From: a virus
DNA: 64,000 bases
Strand: one strand, 5' to 3'
IMG/VR virus record: IMGVR_UViG_3300020048_000110
Part shown: positions 8,001-31,429 of the stretch, piece by piece
How the letters are laid out: each line of letters opens with the position of its first letter
How positions within the stretch are numbered: position 1 is the stretch's first letter
The notes under the pieces: model-generated
Told to the model about the DNA's origin: nothing
The model's input: the letters and a program-made list of their open reading frames with translations, nothing else
Databases searched by the model: none
Program-made: the position numbers and the translations under genes

Positions 8001-9062
8001 GTAGGAACACCTTTAACTCAGGATGGATATGTAAAATTAGATCCTTATGATGATAACATAATCGTTGGTAGACCAATGGCAAGTAGAGCAAGGATGTTAG
8101 GTAGATTTACTGTAAGTAGAGGAAAAGATAAAAAAGGAGAATACTTATCATACTCTGATCAATATGACTTTCCAGATACATTTCAAAATAAAATGAAAGG
8201 GAAGCCATACAATGTTTACAATAGGATCTACTACAAGGACATGAAACAGATGGGTGGTACAATTGAAAACAACGAAAAGTCTTTTTTACAAGAGTACCAA
8301 GTAGGTGGGCCATTTAGCAAAGCAAAAACAAAAAAGGTTAAACCTTACAACTCTAATAAGATAGAGAAAAGTATAATGGATAACCTAGGGGTAAATGACT
8401 TTAGAGATAGTGTAGAAGAAGAAGCAGAAAAACAAGGCATAAGCGGAGTACATAATGGAGGCTTAGACGCAATAAGACACGCATCTTCTGCCGCAAAAGT
8501 TTCATCACAAATCCCACTTGGCCTTGGAGTATTATCAGCAAACGTATTAGGTTTAATTCACGAAATATCTCCAGAGAGTAATTGGAGAGAAACAAAATCA
8601 GATTTGTATAATAATTTTGCAGGAAGTTTAGTAGGCGGTATTCCTTTTATAAGTGACAAAACTAGAAGTAACATACTAATAGAAGCACAAAAAAGAGGAT
8701 ATTTGAGCGATTTAGGAGAGAAAGATGAACCTTTAAATACAAAAAGACCTACTTTAAAAAAGAAAAGTGAAGGAGGTACTATCACAGATAATGAAAAAGC
8801 TTTCTTACAAGAATTTCGACAAGGAGGTACAATACCAGTATCAAGCAATGGAGTTTATGATTATCCCGGACAAGAAGTTATCGTACCAACTAACTCTGGT
8901 AGAATTACCATGAAAAATGTACCCTACGATATTTTAGGTATAGATGAATACGGTAATCAGCAAATGATGCAATCTAACGGTGAATACCAATATCCAGGAA
9001 AAATTATACACGAGATACCACAAACAAAAAAGAAAATTTCAATAAAAAGTAAATTAAAATGA
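5004..9062 (+). CDS. Giant internal or ejection protein with an N-terminal lytic transglycosylase (SLT-like) domain
   Basis: Residues 15-40 read AESGGNPYAKSPLSSASGLYGF, which fits the SLT family ES..N..A.S....GLMQ signature. Two internal copies of GGTI(E/T)(N/D)NEK(S/A)FLQE. The ATGA overlap links its stop to the next ORF. Confidence 0.6.
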   Translation: MPIDREEYLRRIKAAESGGNPYAKSPLSSASGLYGFTKGAFEGLGYKWEDRFNPKVQEEAARKLTDQTYNYLQKKGIKDPTFTDLYGAHWFGPQGYTKLASTPDNTSIANVFSSGVLKANPNLLKKDGTPKTVGEVKGLIAQKVGGQPTQDNSSIGYTDYTLGLAPLPGQMAGYRRDVTEEVSNDPFSKLAEKQQEEDFTNEVRQQQEQQERPQVQPNPLYAAENYQLQQFQPTQYQGQIFSEGFFQEGGIKGSTGNNPKRYNELIIDTSNKQVMDTLNKKFNTLHYKSKMSCTAGSLNCLTDFVQPILNSDSVRTLTQQNTSKYKIPSKPYSWIGDTYVPNNSIDAWEIHSQLSGEGLGTNLINPKSKLTYKKDKKGTNISQIPDQLDYKNLPVGTILGQGDSSNAYTDPKYGTKSRHAMTIIGYDKKDGEPLVYDYGEIRRLSDNTGILKSAPINNVTIPKGYEKYTMGNLVREYNNYSTKLGYGKSVPVNYNSKKEHILAIQNGVNDVKDQIGFDYNIPQTVINKMALMLPGLAYQETGINNNEKLTKSAIADNIVGNYVGKPGLKIIKNTANFIGNTFKEEGSRKKGYELEIEAYKKYPNDPAKRKAYQNQLINENSNLKNTNYEELTSSVGPFSVKNIPAYSENKLKVKKSDMFGVDFSNKSELKNGSKVALNILAENYARAKKQNPNLDPDELIDLSLASYNSGSKLKDKRYIQYFINKDTRTLNDTYLEKIKNFKLQDGGEWFGETVFEKEQPLMAAKDTQEYQDAMTGMMKSKIGMGNALGSPSIKRMSRAMPKTGMTPEGMGTHYMGSVDNYARPFLQDTGKDQLEYFENPRPSREDIRFNSPEEAQYFAERYKEVAPMSTTYSGLQEYQDGGLKAKADRAYAQEIYDQIRPSDYTSLNNYARYIFSVKRDDYDDARSEEAFKQYLGLNDKPKYLSPSKYAPSIKAKGKEGEYYRVDPELENDIFHSYKDKVKLNEVVPVDEINIKSEWPVGTPLTQDGYVKLDPYDDNIIVGRPMASRARMLGRFTVSRGKDKKGEYLSYSDQYDFPDTFQNKMKGKPYNVYNRIYYKDMKQMGGTIENNEKSFLQEYQVGGPFSKAKTKKVKPYNSNKIEKSIMDNLGVNDFRDSVEEEAEKQGISGVHNGGLDAIRHASSAAKVSSQIPLGLGVLSANVLGLIHEISPESNWRETKSDLYNNFAGSLVGGIPFISDKTRSNILIEAQKRGYLSDLGEKDEPLNTKRPTLKKKSEGGTITDNEKAFLQEFRQGGTIPVSSNGVYDYPGQEVIVPTNSGRITMKNVPYDILGIDEYGNQQMMQSNGEYQYPGKIIHEIPQTKKKISIKSKLK

Positions 9063-11611: not shown

Positions 11612-13397
11612 AGTATCAATACCAAAAGAAGTTTTTGAAAACATTTTCTTTAAAGAAGGTGGTCAAAAAACAACTTCTGATAAAGAACGTTTACACAAAT
11701 CATTGACAGGGGAATATCAATTCCCCTTAGATGAAAAAAATCCTATTACGGAACCTAATGCAGAGATTGAAAAAGGAGAGTATCTTTTTGATTCTAAAGG
11801 TATTAGAAAAGCCATGGGTAAAACTCATGAAAAAGGAGGAACACCTGTAAGCCTAGAAGATGGTACCAGAATACTAAGCGACCATTTAAAAATAGGAAAC
11901 ACTTTAGCTAAAGAGTTAACTAAAAACTTTGGTATAAAAGCAAATGCTACAGACACTTATGCAAAGATACTAGATAAATTTGGTAAAAAAATTGGGCTAG
12001 ATAAAGCCAATGAAGAGTTGGAAGAATATATTGCAGCTTTAGATAAACAAAAGGTAAACATCAAAGAAGAAGAAACCTATAGTTTAAACAAAGAATACTT
12101 GACAAAAGAAATAAATGAGTATTCTAAGAAAAAAGAACCGTTAGAAAAACAAAGAGAGCAGTTTTTTAACTATATTTTCTCAAAACAAGAAGACGGTAAA
12201 AAGCAAGAAAGTGCTTCTAAAATGCAATTTGGTGGAGAGTTTATGGACTTAGCTAATAAGTACGGTATCTCCAAAGAAAGAGCTATGGAGTTAATGCACA
12301 CTTTACCAAAGCACCAAACTGGTACAGCAGGTACAATAGATGGAGAAAATCCAGAATTAGTACTTAAAGCAAACGAACAAGCAAGTTGGGAGAAAAAACC
12401 TTTTGGAGAAGGGAGATTACCACACACTACAATAGAAACTTCCGATAATGATGTATGGAAAGGAGAAAACTACGGTAAAGTATGGAAGCCATGGGTGGAG
12501 ACTTCCTTAGCAGATCCAGCAAAAGCTAAAAAAGTAGATGACTACTTGACTAATTATTCCGGAGAGTATGCAGATAGAGTTAAGTCTAACTTAAAAGGTC
12601 TAACAGGACAAGCAAGAATAGACAGAATTAGACAACTAGCTACAGATTCAAAACCGGGGCCATTTCATAATGCAGTTTTAGCAGCCTTGAGATCTACACA
12701 AAAAGCTCCTCCAACAGAAGGTGTAGTAACACCTGAAGCACCAGATCCTTTTCCAGATGTAAATGTAGTAAAGAAGAGATACGCATTAAACTTACCAGAT
12801 CAAACTCCATTATTTCCATCTTCTGCGGATATGCACTATATGGCAAACAGAGAATATGGTTTTGTAGAACCTAGCCTTATCTCTCCAGAGAAGCAATTAG
12901 AAGAGATGGATAGAAATAGGTTAGCAGCTGAAGCTAGAAGCCAAGACTTACCAGACTATCTAAGAGCTGGACAAGGAGCTGCATTAACAGCAAACGCAAA
13001 CGAAGGAACAAATAAAGTAATTGCTGATGTAAACAAATTTAATGCTCAAGCTAAACACTCTACTAATATCTTTAACCAAGGGCAAAGAGATAGAACTACA
13101 GACGCAAAAGCTGCAGATGCTATGGACTTAGAGAGAAAAACCCTTATGGCTAAAAATATTACAGAACAAAACCGTATAGGTTTCTATGACAGGTTAGCAG
13201 AAAATCAATCTAGAAATTGGGACACAGTTAATAAGTTCAATGCTTACAATGCTTTAAATCCAGATGTACAGTTCACCGGAGAAGGTTATGAGGTAAACCC
13301 ATTAAAAATTACAGCTAATCAAAAAGACTGGTTAGAAAAACTTTATGGACAAACTAAAACACCAAAAGTAAAGTTCGGAGGAAGATTTAAAAAATAA
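11592..13397 (+). CDS. Large hypothetical structural protein, 601 aa
   Basis: Long ORF whose start overlaps the previous stop. No motif recognised. Confidence 0.5.
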   Translation: MMSNSNKVSIPKEVFENIFFKEGGQKTTSDKERLHKSLTGEYQFPLDEKNPITEPNAEIEKGEYLFDSKGIRKAMGKTHEKGGTPVSLEDGTRILSDHLKIGNTLAKELTKNFGIKANATDTYAKILDKFGKKIGLDKANEELEEYIAALDKQKVNIKEEETYSLNKEYLTKEINEYSKKKEPLEKQREQFFNYIFSKQEDGKKQESASKMQFGGEFMDLANKYGISKERAMELMHTLPKHQTGTAGTIDGENPELVLKANEQASWEKKPFGEGRLPHTTIETSDNDVWKGENYGKVWKPWVETSLADPAKAKKVDDYLTNYSGEYADRVKSNLKGLTGQARIDRIRQLATDSKPGPFHNAVLAALRSTQKAPPTEGVVTPEAPDPFPDVNVVKKRYALNLPDQTPLFPSSADMHYMANREYGFVEPSLISPEKQLEEMDRNRLAAEARSQDLPDYLRAGQGAALTANANEGTNKVIADVNKFNAQAKHSTNIFNQGQRDRTTDAKAADAMDLERKTLMAKNITEQNRIGFYDRLAENQSRNWDTVNKFNAYNALNPDVQFTGEGYEVNPLKITANQKDWLEKLYGQTKTPKVKFGGRFKK

Positions 13398-13410
13398 AAA
13401 GTTTAATTAA

Positions 13411-13442
13411 TTTGCATATAAGTAAAAAAAGAGTTACTTTTG
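13411..13442 (+). promoter_or_regulatory. Bacteroidetes-type sigma promoter upstream of the 899-aa ORF
   Basis: TTTG at 13411-13414, a 20-nt spacer, then TACTTTTG at 13435-13442. A TTTGCATAAAATT motif is shared with the 31.5 kb intergenic region. Confidence 0.55.
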
Positions 13443-13459
13443 CATAAAATTATTAATAA

Positions 13460-16159
13460 ATGGCTAACGCATATTCAGCACCGATAAATTACGGAAGATA
13501 TATAGAACATGATAGTGTCCAACTAATAGGACAGGTACAAACAGCACTACAACAAAGATATGATGCAAATACCGCTAAGGTAGATGAAATGATATCTATG
13601 GTGTCAAATGTTCCATTGATAAGAGAAGAAGATAAAAAGTACCTTGGAGAAAAAATCCAAGGTCTTTTGTCTATGGTTGATGCCAATTCAAAAATAGATC
13701 TTACAAGCAATAACATTACTAGACAAATAACTAACTACATTAGTACAGCAATAGACGGCAATGTAAAAAAACAAGTAGCTAATTCTCAAAAGATAATGTC
13801 TTTCCAAAAAGACATGGAAGACTTACTCACTAAAGACCCAAAATTATACAACGAAGGTAATGTAGCTTATGCTCAAGATAAAGCTGGATACTCTGATTAT
13901 ATTAGTGGAAAAACTAACGACTTAGGTAACCTTTCCTACAATCCATACGTAGACTATAAAACTACAACTATGGAGAAAGCTATAAAACTAAAGCAGTTAA
14001 AAGGTGATCAAGAGATAGAGACCGTAATGAATGACGAGGATGGGAATCCTACAATCAAGCAAAAAGTTAAAATCAGCGGTTTAACACCAGAGGAAATTAT
14101 CAAATACTTTCCAGAGATGTTGACAGCACAAGAAGAAAAACAGATGGCTATAGATGGTTGGAATTCATTAAGAGGAGCTAAACCAGACCAAATAAAAAAA
14201 ATAGCAGATGACTACTTTAGCAAAATGAAGTCGGGTGTATCTGAGAAAATAAAAGAATTAGATAATATTATAAATAGCGGAAATACTTTTTCTCAAGCAA
14301 AAAGAGAAGAAGCAGCTAGGATAAAAAAACAATACGAATCAGACTTAACAAACATAGGGAGTAAAGAGAAAAACGTAGATAAGTCTAATCCAGAAGCAGT
14401 TGGTTATATGGTCAATAGGTCTGAGTTTATGAATTCTGCAACAGGTTTATTCTCAGGAAGACAATCTGTAACTTATGAAACAAATGAAGTATACTTTAAG
14501 AAGCAAGATTTAGAAATAAAAAGAGAAGAGTTAGCTCAAAAGAAAATAGAGCACGCTGCTAAAATGAAGAAGGAGTATGGACAAGCCGCTGATGGATCTA
14601 CTTTACCTTCAGCAGATTCTGGAAGTTTTGTAAGCTCTGCTATTGCAAATCAAGAAGTTGCACCTTCAGATTTTTATGCAACTACAAAAGAAGCTTTTAA
14701 TAAAGCATATGATACAATTGTATCTACAGGAGAAGCAGTATATAATGACCCAACTATAAACGCTAGTAATAAAGATGCTTATAAAAAAGGTTTAGAGAAG
14801 TTTAACTATACCATAAAAGGTGGAAAGGTTGTTTCAACACTACCAGAAGGTCAAAATAAAAATTCAAAAGCAGCAGCTATAGAAATAGCTTTTCATGAGA
14901 GTGGTATAAGTAAAATTAATAATGGTTACGATAAAGTAATTAGTGACGCTAGTGAAGTAAGATCTCATTTATCAGATGCTTTAGTGAAAGCAGAAAAAAA
15001 TATAGGAAAAGATTTTGACACAGATGATTATGTAAGTAGTTTTGAAGATGTATATAAGAAAATGAATTTCCAAAACACAGAAGGAGGATTCTTATCATCT
15101 CTATACAAAGATACTCCTGAAGAAAAAGCAAAGTATTCTCAAAAATTTAAATCTTTTATAGACAGCCATGGAGGAATAGAAGGTATTAAAAAAAGAGCAA
15201 AAACTGATAGAAGTCTTTTAGTAACTATGAAAAACTTATGGGATGAAGCAGCAGATAACTTAAAAGAGGTTACTAACATATTTGCTCCAGACCCAACAAA
15301 AACTACAAATAAAATAGGAGAAAGCTTGCAAAACTCAGGTATAAAAAATTATGTTGATGCTAAAAAAAGCGTAAATATAACTACTGAAGATTCAAGAGCT
15401 AAATTAATAAACATGTTGCCTCAACAAATTAGAGATATCAAAGGGAATGTGACTGCTTCAGGAGTAGGAGATTTTGACCCTAAATCAGGTATGACTATAG
15501 AAAAAGGAACTGATTATTATGATATCATACAAGACAGAGGTACCAAAACAGACATTAAAGGAAGTACAGTAGGGGTACCATCTGCAACAGCTAGAGTATA
15601 CAAAGGTAGTGAAGCTTACAAGTATATAGAAGCAAACACTGAAAAACCAGGGTATAAAATAGATGTTAAAGGAGTAAATGACAGCTATAGAATAAAACCT
15701 CTAGTAAAACCAGAGTTTTATAGCAGTAATGATAGGGAGATTGTATCAGAAATGAAGGGTAAATATAATGACCATGTGAATAATGAAGTAAAAACAGCTT
15801 TAACAAACATGGTAGGTATTAACCCTACAGTATTTTTAACTAAAGAAAGTACAAGAGCCTACATGGAAAATATGTTTAATGGTAGAATAGAGCCTGCTAA
15901 AATAGAGATTTTATTAAATAAGATAGAAGCAAATTTTAGTAAATATAAAGTAGAGCTTTTACCAAATAGAAGTAAAGATTGTTGGTCAGTAAGTTTTAAA
16001 TCTCCATACGCAGCTTCTGCTTATATTAGTAATTTTAACGATAAGCCAGAATTAAATTCTGATTTTGCGTATGTTTTAAAAACTATGCCACAAATACCTA
16101 TTATGATAGAAGTTGTAAAAGTATTGAATAGAGATGTAAAAAATATAGATAAGATATAA
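13460..16159 (+). CDS. Large hypothetical structural protein, 899 aa
   Basis: Long ORF preceded by a promoter. No motif recognised. Confidence 0.5.
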   Translation: MANAYSAPINYGRYIEHDSVQLIGQVQTALQQRYDANTAKVDEMISMVSNVPLIREEDKKYLGEKIQGLLSMVDANSKIDLTSNNITRQITNYISTAIDGNVKKQVANSQKIMSFQKDMEDLLTKDPKLYNEGNVAYAQDKAGYSDYISGKTNDLGNLSYNPYVDYKTTTMEKAIKLKQLKGDQEIETVMNDEDGNPTIKQKVKISGLTPEEIIKYFPEMLTAQEEKQMAIDGWNSLRGAKPDQIKKIADDYFSKMKSGVSEKIKELDNIINSGNTFSQAKREEAARIKKQYESDLTNIGSKEKNVDKSNPEAVGYMVNRSEFMNSATGLFSGRQSVTYETNEVYFKKQDLEIKREELAQKKIEHAAKMKKEYGQAADGSTLPSADSGSFVSSAIANQEVAPSDFYATTKEAFNKAYDTIVSTGEAVYNDPTINASNKDAYKKGLEKFNYTIKGGKVVSTLPEGQNKNSKAAAIEIAFHESGISKINNGYDKVISDASEVRSHLSDALVKAEKNIGKDFDTDDYVSSFEDVYKKMNFQNTEGGFLSSLYKDTPEEKAKYSQKFKSFIDSHGGIEGIKKRAKTDRSLLVTMKNLWDEAADNLKEVTNIFAPDPTKTTNKIGESLQNSGIKNYVDAKKSVNITTEDSRAKLINMLPQQIRDIKGNVTASGVGDFDPKSGMTIEKGTDYYDIIQDRGTKTDIKGSTVGVPSATARVYKGSEAYKYIEANTEKPGYKIDVKGVNDSYRIKPLVKPEFYSSNDREIVSEMKGKYNDHVNNEVKTALTNMVGINPTVFLTKESTRAYMENMFNGRIEPAKIEILLNKIEANFSKYKVELLPNRSKDCWSVSFKSPYAASAYISNFNDKPELNSDFAYVLKTMPQIPIMIEVVKVLNRDVKNIDKI

Positions 16160-22100: not shown

Positions 22101-22343
22101 AGAGAAGAAGCAGAAAAAGCAGCAGAAAAGAAAGCAAAAGCTGCAGCTGCTAAAAGAGCTAGAGCTAGGGTAAATAAAACTAAACAAGAAGTTCAAGATA
22201 TGGCAGAACAACAAGAAGAAACACAAGATGTAAATGAAGAAATTATTAATGATTTTGATATAGAAGCTGCAGCAGATGAAATTGCAAAAGAAGATAAATC
22301 TTCAGAAGACTATAGAAAAAATAAACCTAAATTTGACTGCTAA
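16161..22343 (+). CDS. Giant structural or ejected protein, 2060 aa, with Gly/Ala-rich hydrophobic N-terminal segments and a long charged coiled-coil-like middle
   Basis: ORF with a long run of E, K, A and L-rich heptad-like sequence. No catalytic motif seen. Confidence 0.5.
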   Translation: MPDYNKKDVYLQNFDAENAAASGFTGLDNFSTNDVAQSIRNSYLPQKDNRQKKNKEVLNDFLSIQPASSYTYGAPVKVEEKAGFTEKNYNVGELYTTLRDGEVVKNFETYTPGIDNYENHAQNQSTAEKWKNGAIKFAGQTVTGIIGGTLGTVYGIEEGIRQGSFRATYDNDFGNYLDDLNEKWNIELPNYYKQSEKEMGFVESMGTANFWAKDVLGGAAFTVSAIGSELIWDYATGGAALATSAARLGAKFERYLGKGASALGKLDDVARAKNLTIAPIRNTFNKTTETAKMFSTAKMPTWYATAFGKAGALANTARFVYTSAGFEAGFEARHYIREEEDKFFADFEKKNGKKPEEADIAEFQKNLTDSANSLYGFNLAVVGTSNLATIGKIFNFKSPLKAPSSWVNSKLFGVGAKAEAGEIIAKQATKAQKISQYAYSITKPMFVEGLYEEGMQSVGSNTAKKWIESKYDPKLTEGTYSLGNAWNDSLSQTYGTKEGFKEVGIGMIVGMIAGHGVNLVKGRGLNAEFSNEKYKAEALANMSKYYSPKKMAETFAYGNRVQMATNSESTAKRKGDFTGEELARQSSVIAQMNYAYNLDYFKEVKEDSIIAIKNIDNETLMDQYGVDESGAEALKKSMIEEYKETADTYKKYRDFAEYYVGDNLKAEESLIGKGGTLGEHDSKSIKEAIAYELTLGEKAHSFSGDLLQAIKEKVASTIVGEGISEALTIDDILAKAGKDAKIQADNKINQIEKVNKEVETIEKDYKQLKKTYDDSVSEEEKKSILGKLDALTSKKQELTQEKEQLRKEFEILVNTSKMKNPFGKDKGTVMISGDTLDNFRSRTQQVKDLIDGYDKINLQDSLQLKKLIQEYGKSLNAFQRYSDLSKQLSDPKLGLRGRRNLIAEIRRDKTPSEATVETLQGLLDKDRLTERGEQALVERAGEIEGLKAEVEKIKEAAKAGASIPKPTAEQIQVTKEEEIQAIKDEYDVKIAELSKSTVNTNQPGKIINGQFIPDNLGTQMAESMVAGLSRLSIVAKLREQEEKELLSKIPNAKNALTNGVVDKNKLTDPEDIAKFEEIYDKYDNLITPLLEYQKNIDIISTPVADIVEELSTLSTLEEKLNWLKDNNLLSTINVKGKEYNVVDYSDRVMVMMKIGQYNIPFYISTGQAGKKNVKAGNWYAVFGIGVEAGWINKGSEEQINDSYGFKLFEKLSKILNEGIGTIESREDNGNGRLKDGIGFLSDSKQDLEAFNDIMNLPTKPAGRNTYVSEFYDHVNSTLSLLNNELSKIGTPTKTVDNNKEINELKKERQAKLAEVEKKYPKSTEERKTLTEEIVDILENSPYLVEYVGTNVSELQPTEEEITEFRDLAEKAINDPKVKLDAIAFKNPYGVSDLPMGRKIISLSKEEVNRLQELNNKMANWQLLQAAANQAGVSIKQIIEQDIARKAKAAEKGIGTKLTDTELVTNTTIQEDESNLDKEGAKNRNEEVLQVAEGSFISRGRGGKMNIHYHTLPGLLKRMVDVKPRITVFKTEKVGNKEVVVDSTRKEILNTELSNYLVPGYHYQLAFEDGTSVEITMEKSSALSFKNREDLEKVLYSADLEYVESTLNRNGGYIPIYDTLTGRKVATDFQVEDNYSPGQIYDIASGESVFFNLDMSDPYNLQLLEEYNQEIRDNVRDPKEVLSDFKDSIKVNITDSSDNSLGILKANYDTRDLSNFLILREKAAELALEPANLGKKTAIPYTTTVKHIFLGAPNHSFEDGILKYYDIKPELVKGYGYISNGELVLKGVKASTVRKEYVKKLYNREGTPVVVLQQGKYLVAFPLNLIETEANLGDEFKEKLLESTNIANTVLELNQKLLEKGLSPRKYNLYFVSEENQTLFDENGDSSEKLTEAINDLNAIKETADVKTWMDRNHTAKDLAEQANIGLDMTRDAFSSPKPIIDFMGDTFVATEVDQDYSDTQKALNAAEVVLAIAEKSTATTREEAEKAAEKKAKAAAAKRARARVNKTKQEVQDMAEQQEETQDVNEEIINDFDIEAAADEIAKEDKSSEDYRKNKPKFDC

Positions 22344-25318
22344 TGGCATTTTGTGAAGTAAAACCAGAACATTTAAAATGGGTCATGGGCTATGCTCATA
22401 CTCTGATGAAAGAGGGTAAAACAATAGAACAGATTATCTCGGAAGTAAGACAAGAACTTCCGGGAAATCAACCCTTTTTGACTAATACATTATTATCTAA
22501 GATTCCAGCATTTATGCAAATGCTAATGTCTAAAAATTCAGTTTTAGGCAGACAGTACGGAGCAAACTTTTTAGAGATTCAAGACATAAAGGATAGATTT
22601 GAAGGACCTGAAGGATACAATGAAGTAGCTAAATTCAACAACAACGTACAATTAAAAGACGAAGTAGAAGCTGAGATATTAGATATCAAAGAAGAAGTCG
22701 AAGAAGAAGTAACTCCTGAAAAAGAACCTGTTACTCTATTAAAACCTAAAGTAAAAAGAAAATCACCAGGACTATCTAGAGAAGCTAAAAAAGCCATGAG
22801 CTATGAAACTTTTGATCCTTATGGAGAAACTATTAAGTATTTCCTATTAGGGGGTAAGTTACATGAAAGTGGATTATTAGATATATTCAAAGATAATGTT
22901 TTAGCAGAAAAGAACGCCAGAATTAAGTATATATCTTCAGATAAAAAACTGTTAAAAAATGGAGATTTAGAGTCAGCAAGTGGAGTAGACTCATTAGCAC
23001 ATTATTTGTGGGAAGGTACAGATTTAAGACAAGAAGACGGATTTCCAATATATAGCACAGAAGATTATAAAGCAGCCGTTATAGAAATAGTTAGAGGAAC
23101 TACAGATCTAAAAGAACTTGCACTTGACTTTATAGCTATAAATAATATGAAAGCTGCGGAAGAAGAGTACTACAGATCTAGACTAGGAGAACTTACAGAA
23201 GAAGAGCAAGACAGAGAAGATTTTCCAGATGCATATTTAGAAACCTACTTTAGAGAAAGACAAGCCGCAGAAAAAGAGTTAGGAGTTCTCATTGAAATAG
23301 GAGATGGGATAAAATTAGAAATTAAAACACAAACTTATGAAACAAAACAAGAAAAAGGAGAAACTAGAGAAGGTGAAAAAGACTCTGGAAAACAAAATGG
23401 TCAAAGAGTTATACAAGACTTCGGAAAGAATTTCCAACCCAAATTTAGCAATGCAGTACCTTATGGGCTTGAGGGAAAACTAGCAGATCACCAAAAAACA
23501 GGTGTAAATGCAATAGTTCAAGCAGTTTCAAGTAATAATAGTTTCTTATTAGCAGATGGTGCCGGAGCTGGAAAAACCAGAATCTTACTTACTTCAGCTA
23601 GAGTCCTTAAAGAAAGAGGAAGAAAAGTTATTATTGTAACCCAAAACAAGGATATTATACAAGGTAGTTTTAAAGCTGATTCAGCAACTCTTGGTATGTC
23701 TTTTATAAAAGGTAAAAATGATGCTGTAGAAATAGGTGGGGTGCCTGTTGTAACTATTGATAATTTCTCTAAAGTTTTAGATCCTAGAGGTTTTGATACC
23801 ATAATATTAGATGAGAGTCATAAAGCTAGCGGTCTTGTAAGTGAAGCTTCAAAGAAACTTAGAGGTTTTGAAGGGCAAGTAGTTTACGCTAGTGCTACAC
23901 CATTTGATACAGAAAGTAAGACTTTATACATACTTCCTAGATTATTAGGTATGAATGAAGAGTCTTATTTAGAAACAATAGGTGGTAAACTTAAAAAGAT
24001 TCCTAGAAGGGCCGAGCCAGATTTGATATATGATACTGCCAAGTTTAATTCTTTGATGAATACAGTTCACTCTAGATTTATATCTGAGGGTAAAATGTTA
24101 CATAGAAGATTTGAATTTTATGGAAATGACAAGCTAGACTTGAACACAATAGGTAATGCAGATGAGTTTGGAGGAGGTTACTCTATAGAGGAATTAGAAG
24201 AAAGAATCAGAGAATTAGCTAGAGAAAAAGCCAAAAAGGTATTCTTGACAGACGCAGATGTAAGAGCAGGAGAAACCGTAGAATCCAAAAAAAGGAAAGT
24301 CTATGAACAAACTGCTAACCAAATTAAGTCGGTACCAGAAACTTTCAAAGCTAACAATGATATGATAGCCCAAGTACAAAAAGATTTAGCAGATGGGAAA
24401 CAAGTCATAATCTACAGTGTAAACGTAAAAGAAGATGGAATGTCTTATAAAATTCTAAACCGAGAAGGAGAAGAAGAAACGGTAAATAGGCCTGCTATGA
24501 TTACACAAATGGAAAAAAAGCTGAAAGATAGAAATATAGACTTTGGAGTTGTAACTGGAAAAATAAGAAACAGACCGGCTATTGTAGATAAGTTTCAAAA
24601 AGGAGAACTAAAAGTACTCTTGATAAACGAGTCTGGAACAACAGGTATTAACTTAAACGATACAGTAGGTAACGCACCAAGAAAGTTATATATTGCAGGA
24701 GCTTTACCAAGTGCTATTCAATTAGAACAAGTTAAGGGTAGGGTAAGTAGGATCAATAATGCATCTGCTGCAGAAGTTTCTTATGTATCCGTAAACTCAT
24801 CAGCAGAAGGTAGAAACAGAGAAAAATTAATAGCTAAAATGGCTATTATGAATAGTATCTTAACCGGAGAGCAATTAAACAATGTTATTGGAAAACAGAA
24901 TAAAATCGAAGAGATTAAAAAAACTGTTAAAGATGGGTTCATAGAACCTTATCTAGAAGATACTGATGGTGGTGCAAAGTTCTTAGTAAAAGGAAGTACT
25001 CAAGAAATAAAAGACATACTTAAAACATTAGGAGCTAGAGGTATATACAGTGCACCTAAAGTATTTTCTGGATGGGAATTTCCAGCTATAAGAAAGCAAG
25101 AGATTCAAGATTTTCTTAATACTACATTTAACAAAGTTGCGGATATAAATAAAGGTATAGGAAGAGTAAATGAAGAGATCAGTGCGATAGGACAAGAGGC
25201 TCCAACTACAACTAAACCAGAAGTACCAAACAGAATACAGAATATATTAGGCGATATAGTTTCTCCAAGCGAAGAGATGATTAGAAAATCTCAAGACGAA
25301 CAAAATAAAAGATGCTAA
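22343..25318 (+). CDS. SF2 (DEAD/DEAH-like) helicase-domain protein, 991 aa, embedded in the giant structural block
   Basis: Motif I LADGAGAGKT at about 23548-23579. Motif II IILDESHKA at about 23800. Motif III YASATP. Motif VI QVKGRVSRI at about 24730. Confidence 0.65.
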   Translation: MAFCEVKPEHLKWVMGYAHTLMKEGKTIEQIISEVRQELPGNQPFLTNTLLSKIPAFMQMLMSKNSVLGRQYGANFLEIQDIKDRFEGPEGYNEVAKFNNNVQLKDEVEAEILDIKEEVEEEVTPEKEPVTLLKPKVKRKSPGLSREAKKAMSYETFDPYGETIKYFLLGGKLHESGLLDIFKDNVLAEKNARIKYISSDKKLLKNGDLESASGVDSLAHYLWEGTDLRQEDGFPIYSTEDYKAAVIEIVRGTTDLKELALDFIAINNMKAAEEEYYRSRLGELTEEEQDREDFPDAYLETYFRERQAAEKELGVLIEIGDGIKLEIKTQTYETKQEKGETREGEKDSGKQNGQRVIQDFGKNFQPKFSNAVPYGLEGKLADHQKTGVNAIVQAVSSNNSFLLADGAGAGKTRILLTSARVLKERGRKVIIVTQNKDIIQGSFKADSATLGMSFIKGKNDAVEIGGVPVVTIDNFSKVLDPRGFDTIILDESHKASGLVSEASKKLRGFEGQVVYASATPFDTESKTLYILPRLLGMNEESYLETIGGKLKKIPRRAEPDLIYDTAKFNSLMNTVHSRFISEGKMLHRRFEFYGNDKLDLNTIGNADEFGGGYSIEELEERIRELAREKAKKVFLTDADVRAGETVESKKRKVYEQTANQIKSVPETFKANNDMIAQVQKDLADGKQVIIYSVNVKEDGMSYKILNREGEEETVNRPAMITQMEKKLKDRNIDFGVVTGKIRNRPAIVDKFQKGELKVLLINESGTTGINLNDTVGNAPRKLYIAGALPSAIQLEQVKGRVSRINNASAAEVSYVSVNSSAEGRNREKLIAKMAIMNSILTGEQLNNVIGKQNKIEEIKKTVKDGFIEPYLEDTDGGAKFLVKGSTQEIKDILKTLGARGIYSAPKVFSGWEFPAIRKQEIQDFLNTTFNKVADINKGIGRVNEEISAIGQEAPTTTKPEVPNRIQNILGDIVSPSEEMIRKSQDEQNKRC

Positions 25319-25384: not shown

Positions 25385-28300
25385 ATGGCAATAGAATGTA
25401 GAATTTTAAGAAACGAGTACGGAGAGATTGATCATGTTATAGCTAATAACGGAGAAAGAAGCGAACTATTCGACAACTTAGTAGATATATCGGGCGGTAA
25501 TAAAGATACCGCCCTAGATCTTTATGCACTAACTGAAACAGAAGAGTTTAAAGAACTTACTGAACTAAAAAGTAACGAAGAAAGAGTAAAATTTCTAAAG
25601 GAATTTCAAAAAGAGAAACCTTTTTTTGGCAAAGATGTAAAATTCCAGAAAACGGAAATAAAAAAGACAGCTATAACTCCAGAAGAACAAAAACAAGAAA
25701 TCATAAACCAACTTAAAAAGACAGGTTTAGCAGGTAATGTTTTTGAGATGTCTAACGATGAAATAGAGTCAAAACTGCAAGAGATTGGGGTAGATTCTGA
25801 AGTAGCAAAACAAGTATCAAAATATCATAAATCAAGACTTTTTGTACCTAATGTTAGAGGGGGCTGGACAAAAGAAAAGATAGTAAAGTACTTCAAATCT
25901 AAAAGTAGTCAAACTGTTACTGACTACGGTATTATACAAATGATTTCTGAATTTGACTCATTTGATGATTTTAAAAAGAATGTATTTTTTCACGGTACAA
26001 CAAATTTCATAGAGAAGGGGCTAAAACCTTCTATCACTATGAGTGAAAGAGATGCAGAAAGATATGGAGGAGGAGGTTATGGAGAAAGATATTTTGGAAT
26101 CTCCCTAACAAAGGATAAAAAAATAGCAGAATCATTTTCTGGAACAAGCAGTAGTGTTAAGGTATACCCAGTTATCTTAAAGAAAGACGCAAAGGTAATA
26201 AACAGAGAAGATTTACAAGACGCTTCTGATGTAGAAGATATAATAGTAGAACTATATGAACAAGGGGTAGATGCTGTATGGATAGGTGGAGGAGAACAAG
26301 AATTAGTAGTTGTGAACCCTTATGCTGTAAGTTTATATAAGAATGGATCAGAAAGTTTTCAAGTATATGGTGGATTCAAAAGCGTACAACCAACTGATAA
26401 AAAACTTTCACAAATCTTCAATAAAGCTAAAAAAGAAGCAGTTGGGTTAGAAAAAGAGTTTAATTCTATTTCAGGTAAAGAGAATAAAGATACCTTTTTA
26501 AGCAACATAGGTAAAACACAGTTTTCAAAAAACCTATCAGAAAAAGGTATAGGGGTAACTACTTCTGGATTTACTTTTAAAGGAGATGTATACTTAAATA
26601 ATGAATCTGCTACTGAAAATACTTCTATACATGAGTTTCAACATTTACATTTAGATTATCTAAAAGAGAATAGAAAACAAGTATATGAGCAAGGTTTATC
26701 ATTAATTCAAAATGAGTTAGCTCTTGGTGAAAATAGTGAAATAAAAGATGTAATAGATTTTGTTAATAGTACACAACCAGACCTTACAGGTGAAAAACTA
26801 CATAACGAGATACTAACAGAACTACTTGGTAGAAAAGGTCTTGACTTAATAGAAGAAACAAAAGATACAGTTAAAAAAGGAGGTATATTAGAGTGGTTGA
26901 AAAACGTATGGGCCGATATAAAATCTATGTGGGGAATCTCTAAGATGAGTAACTCTGAAGTTAAAAAGTTAACATTAGGTAAATATGTTAGAGCTATGAA
27001 CATAGATATCTTAGGTGGAGAAAAATTAATTGGAGATCAAGCACAAGAGTATTTTGCAAGAAATGCAGATAGGCTTCCTCTTACACTTTCAGTATTCCGA
27101 AGACCAGAATTTATAAAACTACAAGGCAAAGAGATTAATCCTATCACGGTTTTAAATTCATTAAATCAAACAGGTATTAAGCAGATTGAAAAAGAACTTA
27201 TAAAAAACGTAATAGAAAAAAACTATCAAGGGCAAAATAAAATATCATACGATGAATTAGAAGCAACTGTAAGAGCAAATATAATGCCTTTAGAGAGGAT
27301 ATTTACAACCAGTTATTCAGATTATGGTATGGAGAGGCTTAGTGATGGAAATTATGGAGAGGCAACTACTATAATATTAAACTCTCCAATAGATCATGGT
27401 ATTGTAGGGCATTTTTCAGGGTCTTTTGTAACATCTGGAAGAAAGAATATAAAATATATGCCAAAACAACTTAATGGTAGTACTTGGGTGGCAGTTGAAG
27501 AAGGATATGAAAGCCAAGCAAATGATAATAACATTTACCAATTTGTAGGAACAGCTGGTACAAAAGAAGCTGTTGATGAGTGGATTAGCAAGTATAAAAA
27601 CCCAAATAACTTATTAAGTATAGATGACAAATCTCTTATAATAGAAGTTTCTGAAGTATCTCAAAGTACAAAAGAACAGTTTCCAGATTCGGACATAGTA
27701 GATGTACAGTTATTAAGAAATGGAGAAGTTTTAAAAACATCAAGAAGAATGCTTAGGAATTCTGAAGAGAATATGAGAGCTAATATAATTGATAATTATA
27801 ACATAGAAAAAGATTCATTATCAGAAACAACTATAAACAAAGGAATGTTTGGTCATATACGTGTATGGCAAGATGGAGATATATTTAATGTTGCAGAACT
27901 TCAATCAGATTACTTTCAAAAAAGTAATGCTAAAAAAGAGATAGTACCTAACGCACCTGAATATACTAAAAAACTAATAGAATTACAAAGTAAGTATAAA
28001 AAAATAGCGGTAGAGAATCTTAGAAGAATAGGTATTACAACTAGGGAAGAAGCGTTAACTTCACTAAATTTATCAACACCTTTGCAAATTAGAAGAGCAG
28101 TTGAAGCTAAAACTATAATAATAGATAAAAATAGTGAAATACAAAAACTTTTAGACACAATAGAGGAAGGGCTTAAAAGCAATGATATTGAAGTACGTAG
28201 ACAGATAGATAAAGATGTATCTAGAGTTATTGAAATAGTTGGTAAAAATCCTGACATTACATCTAATGATAGTTACATAAAAGAGTTAAATCAATTAAAA

Positions 28301-31300
28301 GATAACTATCTCTCACTACAAGAAAAGCAATTTATAGCATCTCAAAAAGAGTTTGAAAAAAGAATGGTTAGAGAAGCAATAAAAGAAGCATCTCTATCAG
28401 GGGCCACAGAACTCCGTTTTCCTACACCATATACCTTGAGTGTTATTGAGGGATACCTATCAGAAAATGGTGGCATGCCTTATGAAATAGAAAGTGCGGA
28501 AGATAGTAGTCGTTTAGAATCTGGTGACACAATTTACTATGCAGGAGAAGAATACACTGTATTAAATTCTTGGTATGAAAATATAGAAGTAGCACAAACT
28601 AGCTCCTTATATTCAACAGAAATAGATTCTTTTATAGAAGAACAAGTTAGTTCTGAAGTTGATGAAATTATGGACTACGGACTTGATGTTGATATTACAA
28701 AATTTTATACCCAAGAAGAGTGGGACAATGAAGATAAATATCGTGCACTAGAAGACACACAATTAGAAGATTTAGGAAAAGAGATTGAAGACGGTGTATA
28801 CGAATTATCAGAAACTAAAATAAGAAATTTAATAGAAGAGGATAAGAGAGATTACTACAATTCAGAGAGTATAGAAAGTATACTCGAAGATATGGGATAT
28901 GAGAATGTAGTTGTAAAGGGAGATACCGCATATTACACACCATACGGAACATCAACAGAAACTTTTGGACAACCTGATACATACGATAATGAAAGCGACA
29001 AAGAATCTTTTACTATAGAAGGCAGCCTAGATGACACACAACAAACAGTTGCTCGTAAGTACGAACAAATTGCTAAAATTCTAGAACAAGAAAGAGGAGA
29101 AGATAACTTTGAGATAATTACAGATGACAGTGGTTTTGATTGGTACTCAACAAAAATAGATCCGAGTGAAACAGACAACCCTGTAGTAGCTTTCCAAAAA
29201 CAAGAAGAAAAACCAACTGTAACCTATAAAAACTCTAAAATATATTCTGCACAAAGAACAAATCCTATTACAGGAGAGCCAACTGGAGAAATAGAATTAA
29301 AAACAATAGAAACTGATAAATTATCTAGAGGTAAAGGTCAAGCAAGAGCAGCTTTAAAGGAATTCCTTAATTATACAGACGCTATAGGAAAAGATGTTTA
29401 TTTAGTAGTTACTCCTAGAGATAGCAGTACTAGATTCACTAGCCTAGTAGACTTTTACAAATCTGAAGGTTTTGAAATGGAACCTACAGAATTCGAAATG
29501 GTAAGGAAAGCAAAACGTGTTAAGGCAGCTAATTTTGATGTTAATGGAGAACCAGATATAAAAACTGTTCTAGACTTTTCTAACAGAAGTAGTGATGGAC
29601 TTACCTCAGAAGAGAAAGTACAAGCCATGAATTTCTTAGTTAGTACAGGATTAAAAACTTCTACAGAACTTCTTTCTAAGCTAGAAGATACGTTTTTCAA
29701 GAATGGTCTATTTGTAGCTAACAAAGTTAAGATGTCTAAAAGCGGATTATACAACAAGTTTGAAATATCTGAAATTACACAATCTCCTATTTTACAGAAA
29801 GAGATAAAAGAATTAGTACTTGCACTTAGGAATACAGAAGAGATGTCAATAGATTATGACAGCAAATTTGTAAAAGGCGAAACTACCAGTTTAAATAATT
29901 TTGGAAAACAGACAGTATCTAATCCTTACATCTTAGAAAAGGAAATTGCTACAGAAATCGCAGGAGTACCTTTAGAGGATGTAAGACAGTACTTATCTTC
30001 TGATATGTCATCTAAATATAAAACTGATTCTGCTTTTAAAAAGGTAGTAGATAGAATTGCTACAGAAAATAAATTAGCAAGTGTTAAGAAGATAGTTAAT
30101 GGAGAATTAGTAGATAAAACTTCAGATACTTCTGAAAAACTAAACCTTACTTTAATAAAAGAAATAGATCAAGAGTTATTAGAAAAGTTATATTATCTGA
30201 CAAACTCTATTTCTGAAAACGTATGGAATCAAAACTTGGATTTAGTATCTAAGTCAATAGAAGATGTATCAAGTTTAGCTAAACAAAACGGTATAGATTT
30301 TTCAAACTTATCTACAAAAGTATATAGCATACCAAGACAAGAAGTAGTAAATTTACTGAACTCTTTTGTAGAGCTAGTTGCAAGTGAAGATAGTCAGAAT
30401 TTAGAAGAGTTTTCTAGTTTATATGACAACATGTTTGATACAACTCAGCCACAAAAAGAGTTGATTAAAACAGATAGTGAATTCGATGTTGTATTAGATA
30501 CTAATTTATCAGAGCAAGAATTATTTTCTAGTTATGATTTAGTAAAAAAAGCAGATGGTATCTACAGAAAAATAGACCCTACTACTTTAGACGATTTATA
30601 CGACTCTTTCTTCAACTATAAAAATTTATTCCCTAGCAGTATAGCTGATATAGAACAATTAAAAAGCTACGTACAAGAAAAGTCTATAGACAACGTAGAA
30701 AACGGTTTTTCTATAGAAGAGGGAGATATGGAGAAAATGTGGATGTACAAAAAGTTCTTTAACTTTCCGATGAATATTTCAAAAGAAAGAGTAGAAGTAG
30801 AGAGGACTAAAAATATAACCCTTGATTCTGAGTATCTGACCGGGGATTTTATAAAAGATTTCAATGTGTACTTACTAGAGTCTGGAAACAAGTATTTCAA
30901 AGTTACAGAAAAAGGTATTGAATTAGAGAATAATGATCCAATATCAAAAGAGGAAGCTAAATTGTCTCTTTCAGAAGAACTAACAGAAGTACTAGCTCAA
31001 TACGATGCGTTATCTAGACATTTAAATTTAGGATTAGAATCTAAGTTGGATACCTATGAAGATTTTAACACTGAAAACGCACAAAGAGTTAACGCTGTAA
31101 ATAACCCTGATTCTGTGCCTAAATTAACTGGAGAGTATACTTATGTAGAAGAAGGCATTTTAGCAGCTAAGAATGAAGCTAATGCGTTTGTAAGGACTCC
31201 AGTGGGGGTATTTGAATTAGTCTATGAAGTGAACAATGTAAAATTCTTCAATAAACTTCCAGATGCAGATCCTAACTACAAATTGTACGAGTTAGAAAAG

Positions 31301-31429
31301 CCACTAACAAATGTAGATTTCAACAATTACTTCTACCTACAAAATTCAGTAGAAGTGTTCAAAGAGGCTAAAAAGAATTATAATAAAAAAGAATTAGAAA
31401 AAATCAATAAAGATTATTTCGACTGTTAA
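25385..31429 (+). CDS. Giant multi-domain protein, 2014 aa, with a zincin HExxH motif and a GNAT-like motif. Candidate ejected effector
   Basis: HEFQH at residues 416-420 (nt 26630-26644). RGKGQARAAL at about residue 1313 (nt ~29321-29370) fits the GNAT motif A (Q/R)xxGx(G/A). FFHGTT at residues 201-206. Confidence 0.45.
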   Translation: MAIECRILRNEYGEIDHVIANNGERSELFDNLVDISGGNKDTALDLYALTETEEFKELTELKSNEERVKFLKEFQKEKPFFGKDVKFQKTEIKKTAITPEEQKQEIINQLKKTGLAGNVFEMSNDEIESKLQEIGVDSEVAKQVSKYHKSRLFVPNVRGGWTKEKIVKYFKSKSSQTVTDYGIIQMISEFDSFDDFKKNVFFHGTTNFIEKGLKPSITMSERDAERYGGGGYGERYFGISLTKDKKIAESFSGTSSSVKVYPVILKKDAKVINREDLQDASDVEDIIVELYEQGVDAVWIGGGEQELVVVNPYAVSLYKNGSESFQVYGGFKSVQPTDKKLSQIFNKAKKEAVGLEKEFNSISGKENKDTFLSNIGKTQFSKNLSEKGIGVTTSGFTFKGDVYLNNESATENTSIHEFQHLHLDYLKENRKQVYEQGLSLIQNELALGENSEIKDVIDFVNSTQPDLTGEKLHNEILTELLGRKGLDLIEETKDTVKKGGILEWLKNVWADIKSMWGISKMSNSEVKKLTLGKYVRAMNIDILGGEKLIGDQAQEYFARNADRLPLTLSVFRRPEFIKLQGKEINPITVLNSLNQTGIKQIEKELIKNVIEKNYQGQNKISYDELEATVRANIMPLERIFTTSYSDYGMERLSDGNYGEATTIILNSPIDHGIVGHFSGSFVTSGRKNIKYMPKQLNGSTWVAVEEGYESQANDNNIYQFVGTAGTKEAVDEWISKYKNPNNLLSIDDKSLIIEVSEVSQSTKEQFPDSDIVDVQLLRNGEVLKTSRRMLRNSEENMRANIIDNYNIEKDSLSETTINKGMFGHIRVWQDGDIFNVAELQSDYFQKSNAKKEIVPNAPEYTKKLIELQSKYKKIAVENLRRIGITTREEALTSLNLSTPLQIRRAVEAKTIIIDKNSEIQKLLDTIEEGLKSNDIEVRRQIDKDVSRVIEIVGKNPDITSNDSYIKELNQLKDNYLSLQEKQFIASQKEFEKRMVREAIKEASLSGATELRFPTPYTLSVIEGYLSENGGMPYEIESAEDSSRLESGDTIYYAGEEYTVLNSWYENIEVAQTSSLYSTEIDSFIEEQVSSEVDEIMDYGLDVDITKFYTQEEWDNEDKYRALEDTQLEDLGKEIEDGVYELSETKIRNLIEEDKRDYYNSESIESILEDMGYENVVVKGDTAYYTPYGTSTETFGQPDTYDNESDKESFTIEGSLDDTQQTVARKYEQIAKILEQERGEDNFEIITDDSGFDWYSTKIDPSETDNPVVAFQKQEEKPTVTYKNSKIYSAQRTNPITGEPTGEIELKTIETDKLSRGKGQARAALKEFLNYTDAIGKDVYLVVTPRDSSTRFTSLVDFYKSEGFEMEPTEFEMVRKAKRVKAANFDVNGEPDIKTVLDFSNRSSDGLTSEEKVQAMNFLVSTGLKTSTELLSKLEDTFFKNGLFVANKVKMSKSGLYNKFEISEITQSPILQKEIKELVLALRNTEEMSIDYDSKFVKGETTSLNNFGKQTVSNPYILEKEIATEIAGVPLEDVRQYLSSDMSSKYKTDSAFKKVVDRIATENKLASVKKIVNGELVDKTSDTSEKLNLTLIKEIDQELLEKLYYLTNSISENVWNQNLDLVSKSIEDVSSLAKQNGIDFSNLSTKVYSIPRQEVVNLLNSFVELVASEDSQNLEEFSSLYDNMFDTTQPQKELIKTDSEFDVVLDTNLSEQELFSSYDLVKKADGIYRKIDPTTLDDLYDSFFNYKNLFPSSIADIEQLKSYVQEKSIDNVENGFSIEEGDMEKMWMYKKFFNFPMNISKERVEVERTKNITLDSEYLTGDFIKDFNVYLLESGNKYFKVTEKGIELENNDPISKEEAKLSLSEELTEVLAQYDALSRHLNLGLESKLDTYEDFNTENAQRVNAVNNPDSVPKLTGEYTYVEEGILAAKNEANAFVRTPVGVFELVYEVNNVKFFNKLPDADPNYKLYELEKPLTNVDFNNYFYLQNSVEVFKEAKKNYNKKELEKINKDYFDC

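Follow-up and report, generated by a model that had tools for sequence, protein, structure and literature searches.

Polyvalent proteins, which are found in phages and conjugative elements, were described by Iyer, Burroughs, Anand, de Souza and Aravind in 2017, and ADP-ribosyltransferase (ART), zincin-like MPTase and GNAT domains are the commonest of their protein-modifying or hub domains, with one of the two polyvalent GNAT families typically neighbouring an ART domain (PMC5512222). In this work, we analysed a 64,000-nucleotide stretch of viral DNA (IMG/VR record IMGVR_UViG_3300020048_000110, hereafter the window) and focused on one gene in it that encodes a protein of 2014 residues (Table 1). 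The open reading frame, called with the same boundaries in an initial annotation made from the DNA letters, is real: it appears in the ORF listing, and a public collection holds a 2014-residue protein that is 100% identical (P0001). In our reading, the gene encodes a polyvalent protein of the type described by Iyer et al. 2017, a phage product that would be incorporated into virions, probably enters the host and carries exchangeable enzymatic cassettes; we assign this reading a probability of roughly 75%.

The gene lies in a virion-gene context. Its neighbours on the + strand form a block of giant ORFs that match PHROG 'virion structural protein' families and include an SLT transglycosylase, and the replication genes are on the strand opposite to this block. 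The block is syntenic with gp042 to gp035 of Cellulophaga phage phi4:1, counterparts that are virion proteins by MS/MS, and the source of the window is a low-GC, marine-type phage lineage related to flavobacterial (Cellulophaga) phages. Curated models from Pfam, NCBIfam and PHROGs gave no match to any part of the 2014-residue query. Searches of PDB sequences with the query or its modules by phmmer, profile searches of PDB sequences with the query modules, and megablast against phage genomes returned nothing useful.

Table 1. Features of the 2014-residue protein and its gene, with nucleotide positions in the window.
Feature	Residues	Nucleotides	Strand	Basis
Whole ORF, polyvalent-type virion protein	2014 aa	25385..31429	+	ATG start; ORF listing
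Module A, N-terminal domain	1-70	25385..25594	+	blastp
Module B, small helical-looking segment	69-150	25589..25834	+	blastp
Module C, divergent ADP-ribosyltransferase domain	150-380	25832..26524	+	AF2 model, HHalign, conservation
FFHGTT, end of predicted strand 1 of ART fold	201-206	25985..26002	+	AF2 model, HHalign
Module D, HExxH domain, zincin-like metallopeptidase candidate	383-560	26531..27064	+	conservation, AF2 model
HEFQH	416-420	26630..26644	+	ORF translation, motif scan
E475, invariant downstream Glu, candidate third metal ligand	475	26807..26809	+	conservation, AF2 model
Region E, conserved module (~700 aa)	560-1270	27062..29194	+	homologue search
Module F, mini-GNAT-like domain	1270-1395 (core about 1300-1375)	29192..29569	+	profile comparisons
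RGKGQARAAL, candidate GNAT motif A	1315-1324	29327..29356	+	motif scan, alignment of 11 relatives
Module G, conserved C-terminal domain	1390-2014	29552..31429	+	phi4:1 comparison

Homologues of the whole protein number 126, and blastp resolves a clear modular layout from A to G. Many of the 126 carry Pfam families by which polyvalent proteins are defined, namely PF18760 (ART-PolyVal), PF18838 (LPD23), PF18763 (ddrB-ParB), PF18798, PF18819 (MuF-C), PF18823 (InPase) and PF04002 (RadC). The layout varies in the orthologue P0003, which is encoded at a syntenic locus with neighbours 83–89% identical to those in the window: both ends of the protein are kept, and the middle is swapped for an ART-PolyVal-like domain. 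Enzymatic cassettes are thus exchanged between orthologues within an otherwise conserved structural gene. Module A occurs in 27 related proteins, mostly at the extreme N-terminus and with approximately 53–65% identity in the closest ones, and possibly has a role in packaging or anchoring. In phi4:1, module G has its homologous counterpart, at 24% identity, in gp037 together with the end of gp038; both are MS/MS-detected virion proteins. This C-terminal homologue and the synteny suggest, by analogy, that the protein is present in the virion, where the conserved ends, modules A and G, would most likely serve assembly or packaging.

In other proteins, module B closely precedes module D, with or without a variable insert between the two. 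We considered whether module B is the Pfam domain LPD23 and rejected this assignment, as iterating an LPD23 profile located the domain at other places in the relatives and gave no match in the query. Region E, with conserved blocks at about residues 565–740, 810–870, 965–1100 and 1150–1270, has 325 homologues, mostly giant proteins, and no relative of it was found in Pfam or the PDB.

Module C was resolved as an ART domain. Its AF2 model, with pLDDT mostly 80–95 across the block, has the split beta-sheet of the ART fold, and HHalign matched it to the ART-PolyVal alignment, which has zero sequences in common with module C, at 94.4% probability (E 9e-8). In this comparison, the catalytic His of ART-PolyVal is matched by H203 and its conserved Asp by D296. 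H203-G204 is located at the end of a predicted strand (residues 200–205), and the invariant D296 directly precedes the strand at residues 297–300, consistent with a catalytic acid at strand 5. Among 77 homologues spanning 35–60% identity, the constant residues are H203-G204, P215-S216, G230/Y232, S240, D279, D296-A-V, E304-x-E306 and N311-P312. H203 and G204 are present in 77/77, with residue 205 being T, A or S, and Y232 (77/77), Y236 (76/77) and F251 (75/77), conserved near strand 2 (residues 239–242), are all candidates for the aromatic position of the H-Y-[EDQ] active site. An HG[ST] motif is expected by chance 0.086 times per protein of this composition, and one is observed. The initial annotation, which placed FFHGTT correctly, had related the HGT motif to H-Y-E ARTs and called the link weak; the link holds, the qualifier does not, and among the three claims made about motifs in this protein it is the best supported.

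The relationship of module C to ART-PolyVal (PF18760; Tox-ART-HYD2 clade, H-Y-D active site) is one of sister families. Hmmscan with PF18760 gave no match to the query even at E≤1; because it took profile-profile comparison and iterated searching to relate the two, we filed module C as a divergent sister family rather than as PF18760. Compared with ART-PolyVal, module C adds an N-terminal extension of approximately 50 residues with the invariant VRGGWTKEKI, a GGGGYG loop, and the invariant E-x-E just past the aligned Asp. In other proteins, module C often adjoins a bona fide ART-PolyVal domain, indicating that it is a distinct paralogous family. E304 and E306, which are as invariant as D296, are further candidates for the catalytic acid. 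The idea that E304-x-E306 corresponds to the ExE motif known from cholera toxin and other R-S-E toxins was downgraded, given that in the HHalign comparison the Asp of ART-PolyVal pairs with D296, ahead of the strand that precedes E304-x-E306.

Module D follows module C directly and is a candidate zincin-like metallopeptidase. HEFQH, for which the initial annotation gave exact residue and nucleotide positions, is the only HExxH in a protein where His makes up just 0.5% of the residues and the motif is expected 0.0066 times by chance from the protein's own composition. The initial annotation had also proposed checking whether homologues keep HExxH plus a downstream Glu. They do: with modules C and D aligned separately for the conservation counts, H416, E417 and E475 are found in 51/51 module D homologues and H420 in 50/51. 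The AF2 model (pLDDT 85) consists of a beta-hairpin, the HExxH helix and a later helix that bears E475, with HEFQH predicted inside the helix at residues 411–429 and E475 inside the helix at residues 469–495; in zincins, HExxH and the downstream Glu are likewise both helical. Foldseek found no match to the module D model in the PDB. Module D may be something other than a peptidase, namely another metal-dependent hydrolase or a structural metal-binding or helical domain, in which case the protein would be an ART effector, with or without GNAT activity, that does not process itself. We regard this as distinctly unlikely and continue to treat module D as a zincin-like metallopeptidase candidate.

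Module F, a domain of approximately 100 residues, is consistent with a GNAT-like, acetyltransferase-type domain as judged from its sequence. The motif RGKGQARAAL starts at residue 1315 rather than at about 1313 as first annotated, and it contains GNAT motif A, (Q/R)-x-x-G-x-(G/A), in the form R1315-G-K-G1318-Q-A1320. All 11 close homologues keep G1318 and A1323, and nearly all keep R1315, G1316 and A1320. The pattern (Q/R)xxGx(G/A) is uninformative by itself, since 0.70 occurrences are expected per protein by chance and three are observed (residues 226, 719 and 1315). A bridged profile of module F matched AcrVA5 (6iuf) at E 7e-8, together with dozens of GNATs, and this AcrVA5 match hinged on four more distant sequences that had been added to the close relatives. 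The profile of the 11 close relatives alone reached no GNAT in the PDB, with AcrVA5 at 12.5 bits (E about 1), and HHalign of the core-only module against AcrVA5 gave 67%. Because this close-relatives-only control was negative against the PDB, we lowered the claim of an AcrVA5/GNAT relationship. A profile search of a large protein database returned three solo homologues of module F (146–152 residues) without the parent family and was used for those three alone. Four of the 11 core members and two of the three solo members showed sub-threshold matches to five to eight GNAT-clan Pfam families (best E 0.004), and no match of either group attained the gathering score.

On this evidence, module F might instead be a small alpha/beta adaptor whose motif match is coincidental, a reading favoured by the chance rate of the pattern, the absence of GNATs among the PDB matches of the core-only profile and the sub-threshold level of every Pfam match. 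We consider it unlikely for several reasons. Independent members point, at sub-threshold level, to many different GNAT-clan families, mostly through the motif-A half where coordinates are given, and the core profile matches the Pfam-labelled GNAT regions of P0042 as well as the module-F-equivalent region of P0062. The AcrVA5 alignment retains the strand, motif A, the P-x-D motif and the L..FY.S..F helix, and the JGI name for the relatives P0005 and P0026 is 'predicted GNAT family acetyltransferase'. The GNAT-like reading of the initial annotation is therefore retained as far as the presence and conservation of motif A are concerned, with family support that is consistent yet sub-threshold and a core-only profile that is negative against the PDB. 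Its account of a three-motif protein was essentially right, and all three motifs lie inside conserved domains.

A more general alternative is that the protein is a purely structural component of the virion or ejectosome, whose enzyme-like domains have decayed into pseudo-enzymes and persist as relics that serve folding or binding. No curated enzyme model scores above threshold on the query, the C-terminal 625 residues, region E and module A are without an enzymatic signature, and the phi4:1 counterparts are annotated as structural proteins only. However, the would-be catalytic residues are exactly the invariant ones, with H203, D296 and E304/E306 held across the full divergence of the module C family and the HExxH and E475 positions of module D showing a single exception, and such residues are normally lost in relics. 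The fast swapping of cassettes between orthologues also points to a conflict-driven effector role. These observations make the structural alternative very unlikely and favour the polyvalent-protein reading.

In that reading, a giant, late-expressed polypeptide would be built into the virion and probably enter the host with the DNA, its exchangeable enzymatic cassettes sitting between the conserved ends A and G. The ART cassette, of the H-Y-D/E class, would carry out an NAD+-dependent modification of a host target. The HExxH...E domain would most likely cleave the polypeptide into active parts or, alternatively, attack a host protein. Region E may represent a third cassette, and the AcrVA5-like mini-GNAT could acetylate a host target. 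What the data show directly are the limits of the domains, the invariance of residues of catalytic type, the ART fold, the virion-gene setting and the exchange of cassettes between orthologues, whereas packaging, injection, enzymatic activity, the targets and self-processing are inferred. The earlier suggestion of a multi-enzyme effector, if injected, fits both the polyvalent-protein concept as published (PMC5512222) and the virion-gene setting. A bolder extension, which we hold only tentatively and consider improbable as a whole, is that the virion delivers the protein as a toolkit against host defences. On entry, the HExxH peptidase would free an AcrVA5-like acetyltransferase, an AcrF11-like ART and an enzyme-like region E, which would covalently disable CRISPR-Cas, restriction or other immunity before phage gene expression; cassette swapping would track host defences, and hundreds of giant proteins would share, in region E, an effector family that is new.

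To our knowledge, polyvalent proteins are a computational prediction of 2017 that is experimentally still largely untried. The class has been known since then, and the particular domain families of the query are missing from standard catalogues. Pfam, NCBIfam and PHROGs miss its three enzyme-like domains as well as the 700-residue module that it shares with over 300 giant proteins, so that standard annotation leaves the whole 2014-residue gene 'hypothetical'. The candidates offered here are a new ART subfamily (H203 / D296 / E304-x-E306), a new HExxH clade and an AcrVA5-like mini-GNAT; if their targets are host defence proteins, they could lead to enzymatic activities against host defence that are new.

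Among the known systems, T4 Alt is a functional analogue: a head-packaged ART that is delivered with the DNA and modifies host proteins (PMC5512222), as an injected query might. In contrast to the query, Alt carries a single enzyme, of the R-S-E clade, and the two proteins are not homologous in sequence. AcrVA5 (PDB 6IUF), a GNAT anti-CRISPR of approximately 90 residues that ranked first among the PDB matches when the bridged profile was used, shares with module F the minimal size (approximately 90–100 residues) and the motifs retained in the alignment described above, whereas the match is weak with the core-only profile and module F is embedded in a 2014-residue protein; nothing in the analysis pointed from module F to Cas12a or to another target. 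Modules C, D and F had no counterpart in phi4:1 (Lightbulbvirus) by tblastn, and the region corresponding to module G, with its low identity, is split over two genes; phi4:1 nevertheless resembles the window in its syntenic giant virion genes, in the homology of module G with gp037 and the end of gp038, and in neighbours that belong to the same PHROG families. The polyvalent proteins as a class are a further close comparison. The query differs from them in that its own domains are missed by the Pfam models derived from the work of Iyer et al., and in that it comes from a Cellulophaga-related, low-GC phage and holds a 700-residue conserved module without assignment. Like them, it joins at least two disparate biochemical domains in one polypeptide, comprising an ART fold, an HExxH/E domain, a GNAT-like domain and four more conserved modules; it is a giant phage protein encoded among late virion genes, as seen from the PHROG families, the SLT transglycosylase and the synteny with phi4:1; and its homologues carry the defining Pfam families of the class.

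The 2014-aa phage protein belongs to the polyvalent proteins, an already known class, whereas its constituent domain families are new to curated libraries: no model in Pfam, PHROGs or NCBIfam matched any segment of it. Its ORF is intact in the ORF listing of the window, and the public protein collection contains an identical entry (P0001). The database search returned 126 homologues, the majority of 1200–3500 aa, and most of them carry Pfam families derived from Aravind's polyvalent proteins, namely ART-PolyVal, LPD23, ddrB-ParB, LPD3, MuF-C, InPase, RadC and SprT-like. Mapping the local homologue matches onto the protein gave the borders of seven modules, A to G. Module B directly adjoins module D in some relatives; here module C is inserted between them. 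The three motifs singled out by the initial annotation were all located as claimed. Against chance expectations computed from the protein's own composition (His = 0.5%), HExxH was observed once (0.0066 expected) and HG[ST] once (0.086 expected). The loose GNAT motif A occurs three times for 0.7 expected and is therefore uninformative by itself.

Modules and motifs of the 2014-aa protein and neighbouring features in the window
Feature	Residues	Window position (nt, strand)	Description
Gene of the 2014-aa protein	1-2014	25385-31429 (+)	ATG start
Module A	1-70		extreme N-terminus in most of 27 relatives
Module B	69-150		in other proteins, upstream of module D
Module C	150-380		77 homologues, 35-62% identity
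Module D	383-560		53 homologues
Module E (region E)	560-1270	27062-29194	conserved
Module F	1270-1395		GNAT-like
Module G	1390-2014		C-terminus, conserved
FFHGTT	201-206		in module C
HEFQH	416-420	26630-26644	in module D
RGKGQARAAL	1315-1324		in module F
1352-aa giant protein		5004-9062 (+)	lytic transglycosylase (SLT) signature at N-terminus
850-aa protein		9059-11611 (+)	UBA/TS-N match at aa 776-794; COMMD HN domain match
991-aa protein		22343-25318 (+)	ResIII/Helicase_C superfamily-2 helicase
Strand switch		~37300 (between 37272 and 37385)	convergent

Module C lies outside the coverage of the Pfam ART-PolyVal model. In a related protein, P0034, a Pfam ART domain (aa 800–946) directly precedes the segment that matches module C (aa 934–1172). 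The AF2 model of the domain, built from 24 sequences, has a block pLDDT mostly of 80–95, and the RES toxins ParT and MbcT are listed with this ART model. Independently of the model, ART-PolyVal domains were gathered from the homologues by iterated search, and module C regions began to match the resulting profile by round three. HHalign of the module C and ART-PolyVal alignments, which share no overlapping sequence, gave 94.4% probability (E 9e-8, 106 columns) and paired FFHGT with VvYHGT and GVD296AVWIG with gyDGii. The ART-PolyVal active site comprises H on strand 1, Y on strand 2 and D on strand 5 (Iyer et al., PMC5512222). In the AF2 model, H203 is at the end of a strand (aa 200–205) and D296 immediately precedes another (aa 297–300). 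All 77 homologues keep H203, G204, P215, G230, Y232, S240, D279, D296-A-V, E304, E306 and N311-P312, and 76 of them keep Y236. The model, the HHalign match and the invariance of H203 and D296 together bear out the earlier hunch that the HGT motif points to ART or Tpt1 enzymes. We classify module C as a divergent sister family of ART-PolyVal, in which D296 and E306 are both candidates for the catalytic acid and more than one aromatic residue is a candidate for the Y position.

In module D, the HExxH motif and a downstream Glu are conserved, as the initial annotation had proposed to check: H416, E417 and E475, together with N405, G482 and G485, are kept in 51 of 51 homologues and H420 in 50. The AF2 model of this module alone (pLDDT 85, pTM 0.81) shows a β-hairpin (aa 395–404), a helix bearing HEFQH (aa 411–429), two short helices and a long helix bearing E475 (aa 469–495). 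This predicted order agrees with the layout that Iyer et al. (PMC5512222) assign to zincin-like MPTases in polyvalent proteins, where the first C-terminal helix bears HExxH, the second bears Glu, and variable inserts separate the two. Foldseek with the model and a profile search of PDB sequences returned no match, and HHalign against SprT-like/DUF6782-labelled domains of other polyvalent proteins reached 38–50%, spanning the hairpin and HExxH only. We therefore regard module D as a putative metal-binding HExxH...E domain that is likely a zincin peptidase.

Module F can be read as GNAT strand 4 (IELKTIET), motif A (RGKGQA), VYLVV and LVDFYKSEGF. A profile with four more distant relatives added retrieved AcrVA5 (6iuf; PMC11021501) at E 7e-8 and, ranked below it, dozens of GNATs, whereas a control profile restricted to the 11 close relatives retrieved no PDB GNAT and scored 12.5 bits against AcrVA5 (HHalign 67%). 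The same core profile recovered the Pfam-annotated GNAT regions of the related protein P0042. Sub-threshold matches (E 0.004–0.1) to five to eight GNAT-clan Pfam families were seen in four of the 11 core members, and such matches also in two of three solo homologues; most of those with reported coordinates cover the half of the profile that contains motif A. For one of the two polyvalent families, the ART domain is the typical neighbour of its GNATs (Iyer et al., PMC5512222). The earlier GNAT assignment draws support from the sub-threshold and bridged matches, and module F is probably a minimal, AcrVA5-like GNAT judging from sequence comparison. The solo homologues (P0270, P0271 and P0272; 146–152 aa) are stand-alone versions ending exactly at the ...KTSDFEMxR boundary. 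The P0270 contig (from GCA_041443045.1) is phage-like around this gene, with small genes, a Metallophos gene and a faint DnaG-like gene. In the jumbo Pseudomonas phage Lu11 (NC_017972.1, 159517–159705), 63 aa within a hypothetical protein are 47.6% identical to the motif-A core (aa 1303–1365), so this mini-GNAT-like module moves widely among phages that are not related to each other.

Exhaustive phmmer found 325 homologues of region E (117 at E<=1e-30), nearly all giant (1000–5700 aa), of which P0142 additionally has RadC and InPase domains. Conserved blocks cover aa ~565–740, 810–870, 965–1100 and 1150–1270, with the strongly conserved motifs N-x-P-x-x-HG-x-x-GHF, ELQSD, KQFIASQKEWEKR..REAIK, FPTPYT..IEGY and TD.NGFDWYETK. 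No relative was found in Pfam, in PDB sequences or in PDB by profile.

The positional orthologue P0003 (1646 aa; 10001–14941 of the syntenic contig L002) lies in the gene order 2059-aa protein, 989-aa helicase, P0003, 1918-aa protein, and its three neighbours are 83–89% identical to their window counterparts over full length. P0003 itself is 65% identical to the 2014-aa protein over aa 1–150, 45% over module D and 77% over aa 1268–2014. Neither module C nor region E could be aligned to any part of it, and an ART-PolyVal-like segment occupies the place of module C. The locus looks like a cassette-swap hotspot, and the pattern is what diversifying pressure on effector domains within a conserved structural scaffold would be expected to produce.

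The window is of low GC content (~32%), and strand and GC skew switch sharply near 37.3 kb, where AT skew also inverts. The + strand (96 to 37272) carries nine giant ORFs of 601–2060 aa, several of which match PHROG 'virion structural protein' families. The SLT signature of the 1352-aa protein is as in podophage ejection or internal virion proteins. The UBA/TS-N and COMMD HN matches near the C-terminus of the 850-aa protein are weak though above cutoff; they are unusual in a protein from a phage structural block and may be spurious. Amid the giant virion genes, immediately upstream of the gene under study, the 991-aa helicase may be packaged in the virion; its position is kept in L002, where the copy is 83% identical. 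The - strand encodes replication and nucleotide metabolism (DNA polymerase, DnaB-like helicase, RNR subunits, thymidylate synthase and exonucleases). A nucleotide-level search of deposited phage genomes gave no match to the window. A protein-level search matched the C-terminal 600 aa to Cellulophaga phages phi4:1 and phi17:2 (24% identity, E 6e-13), and the phi4:1 equivalent of module G is the end of gp038 together with gp037. These lie in a syntenic block of giant proteins, gp042 to gp035, annotated as virion/structural 'based on experimental MS/MS proteomics'.

The initial observation is real, and its overall interpretation as a possible injected multi-enzyme effector is essentially right. 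We infer that the protein would be made late, built into the particle via its conserved termini and ejected with the DNA to act on the host. There, module C would ADP-ribosylate and module F acetylate host targets, while module D may cleave the polypeptide into active fragments or attack host proteins. Such activities have precedents: AcrVA5 acetylates Cas12a and AcrF11 is an ART anti-CRISPR. Likewise, T4 Alt is an injected ART, and the processing of P1 DdrB offers a further parallel (PMC5512222).
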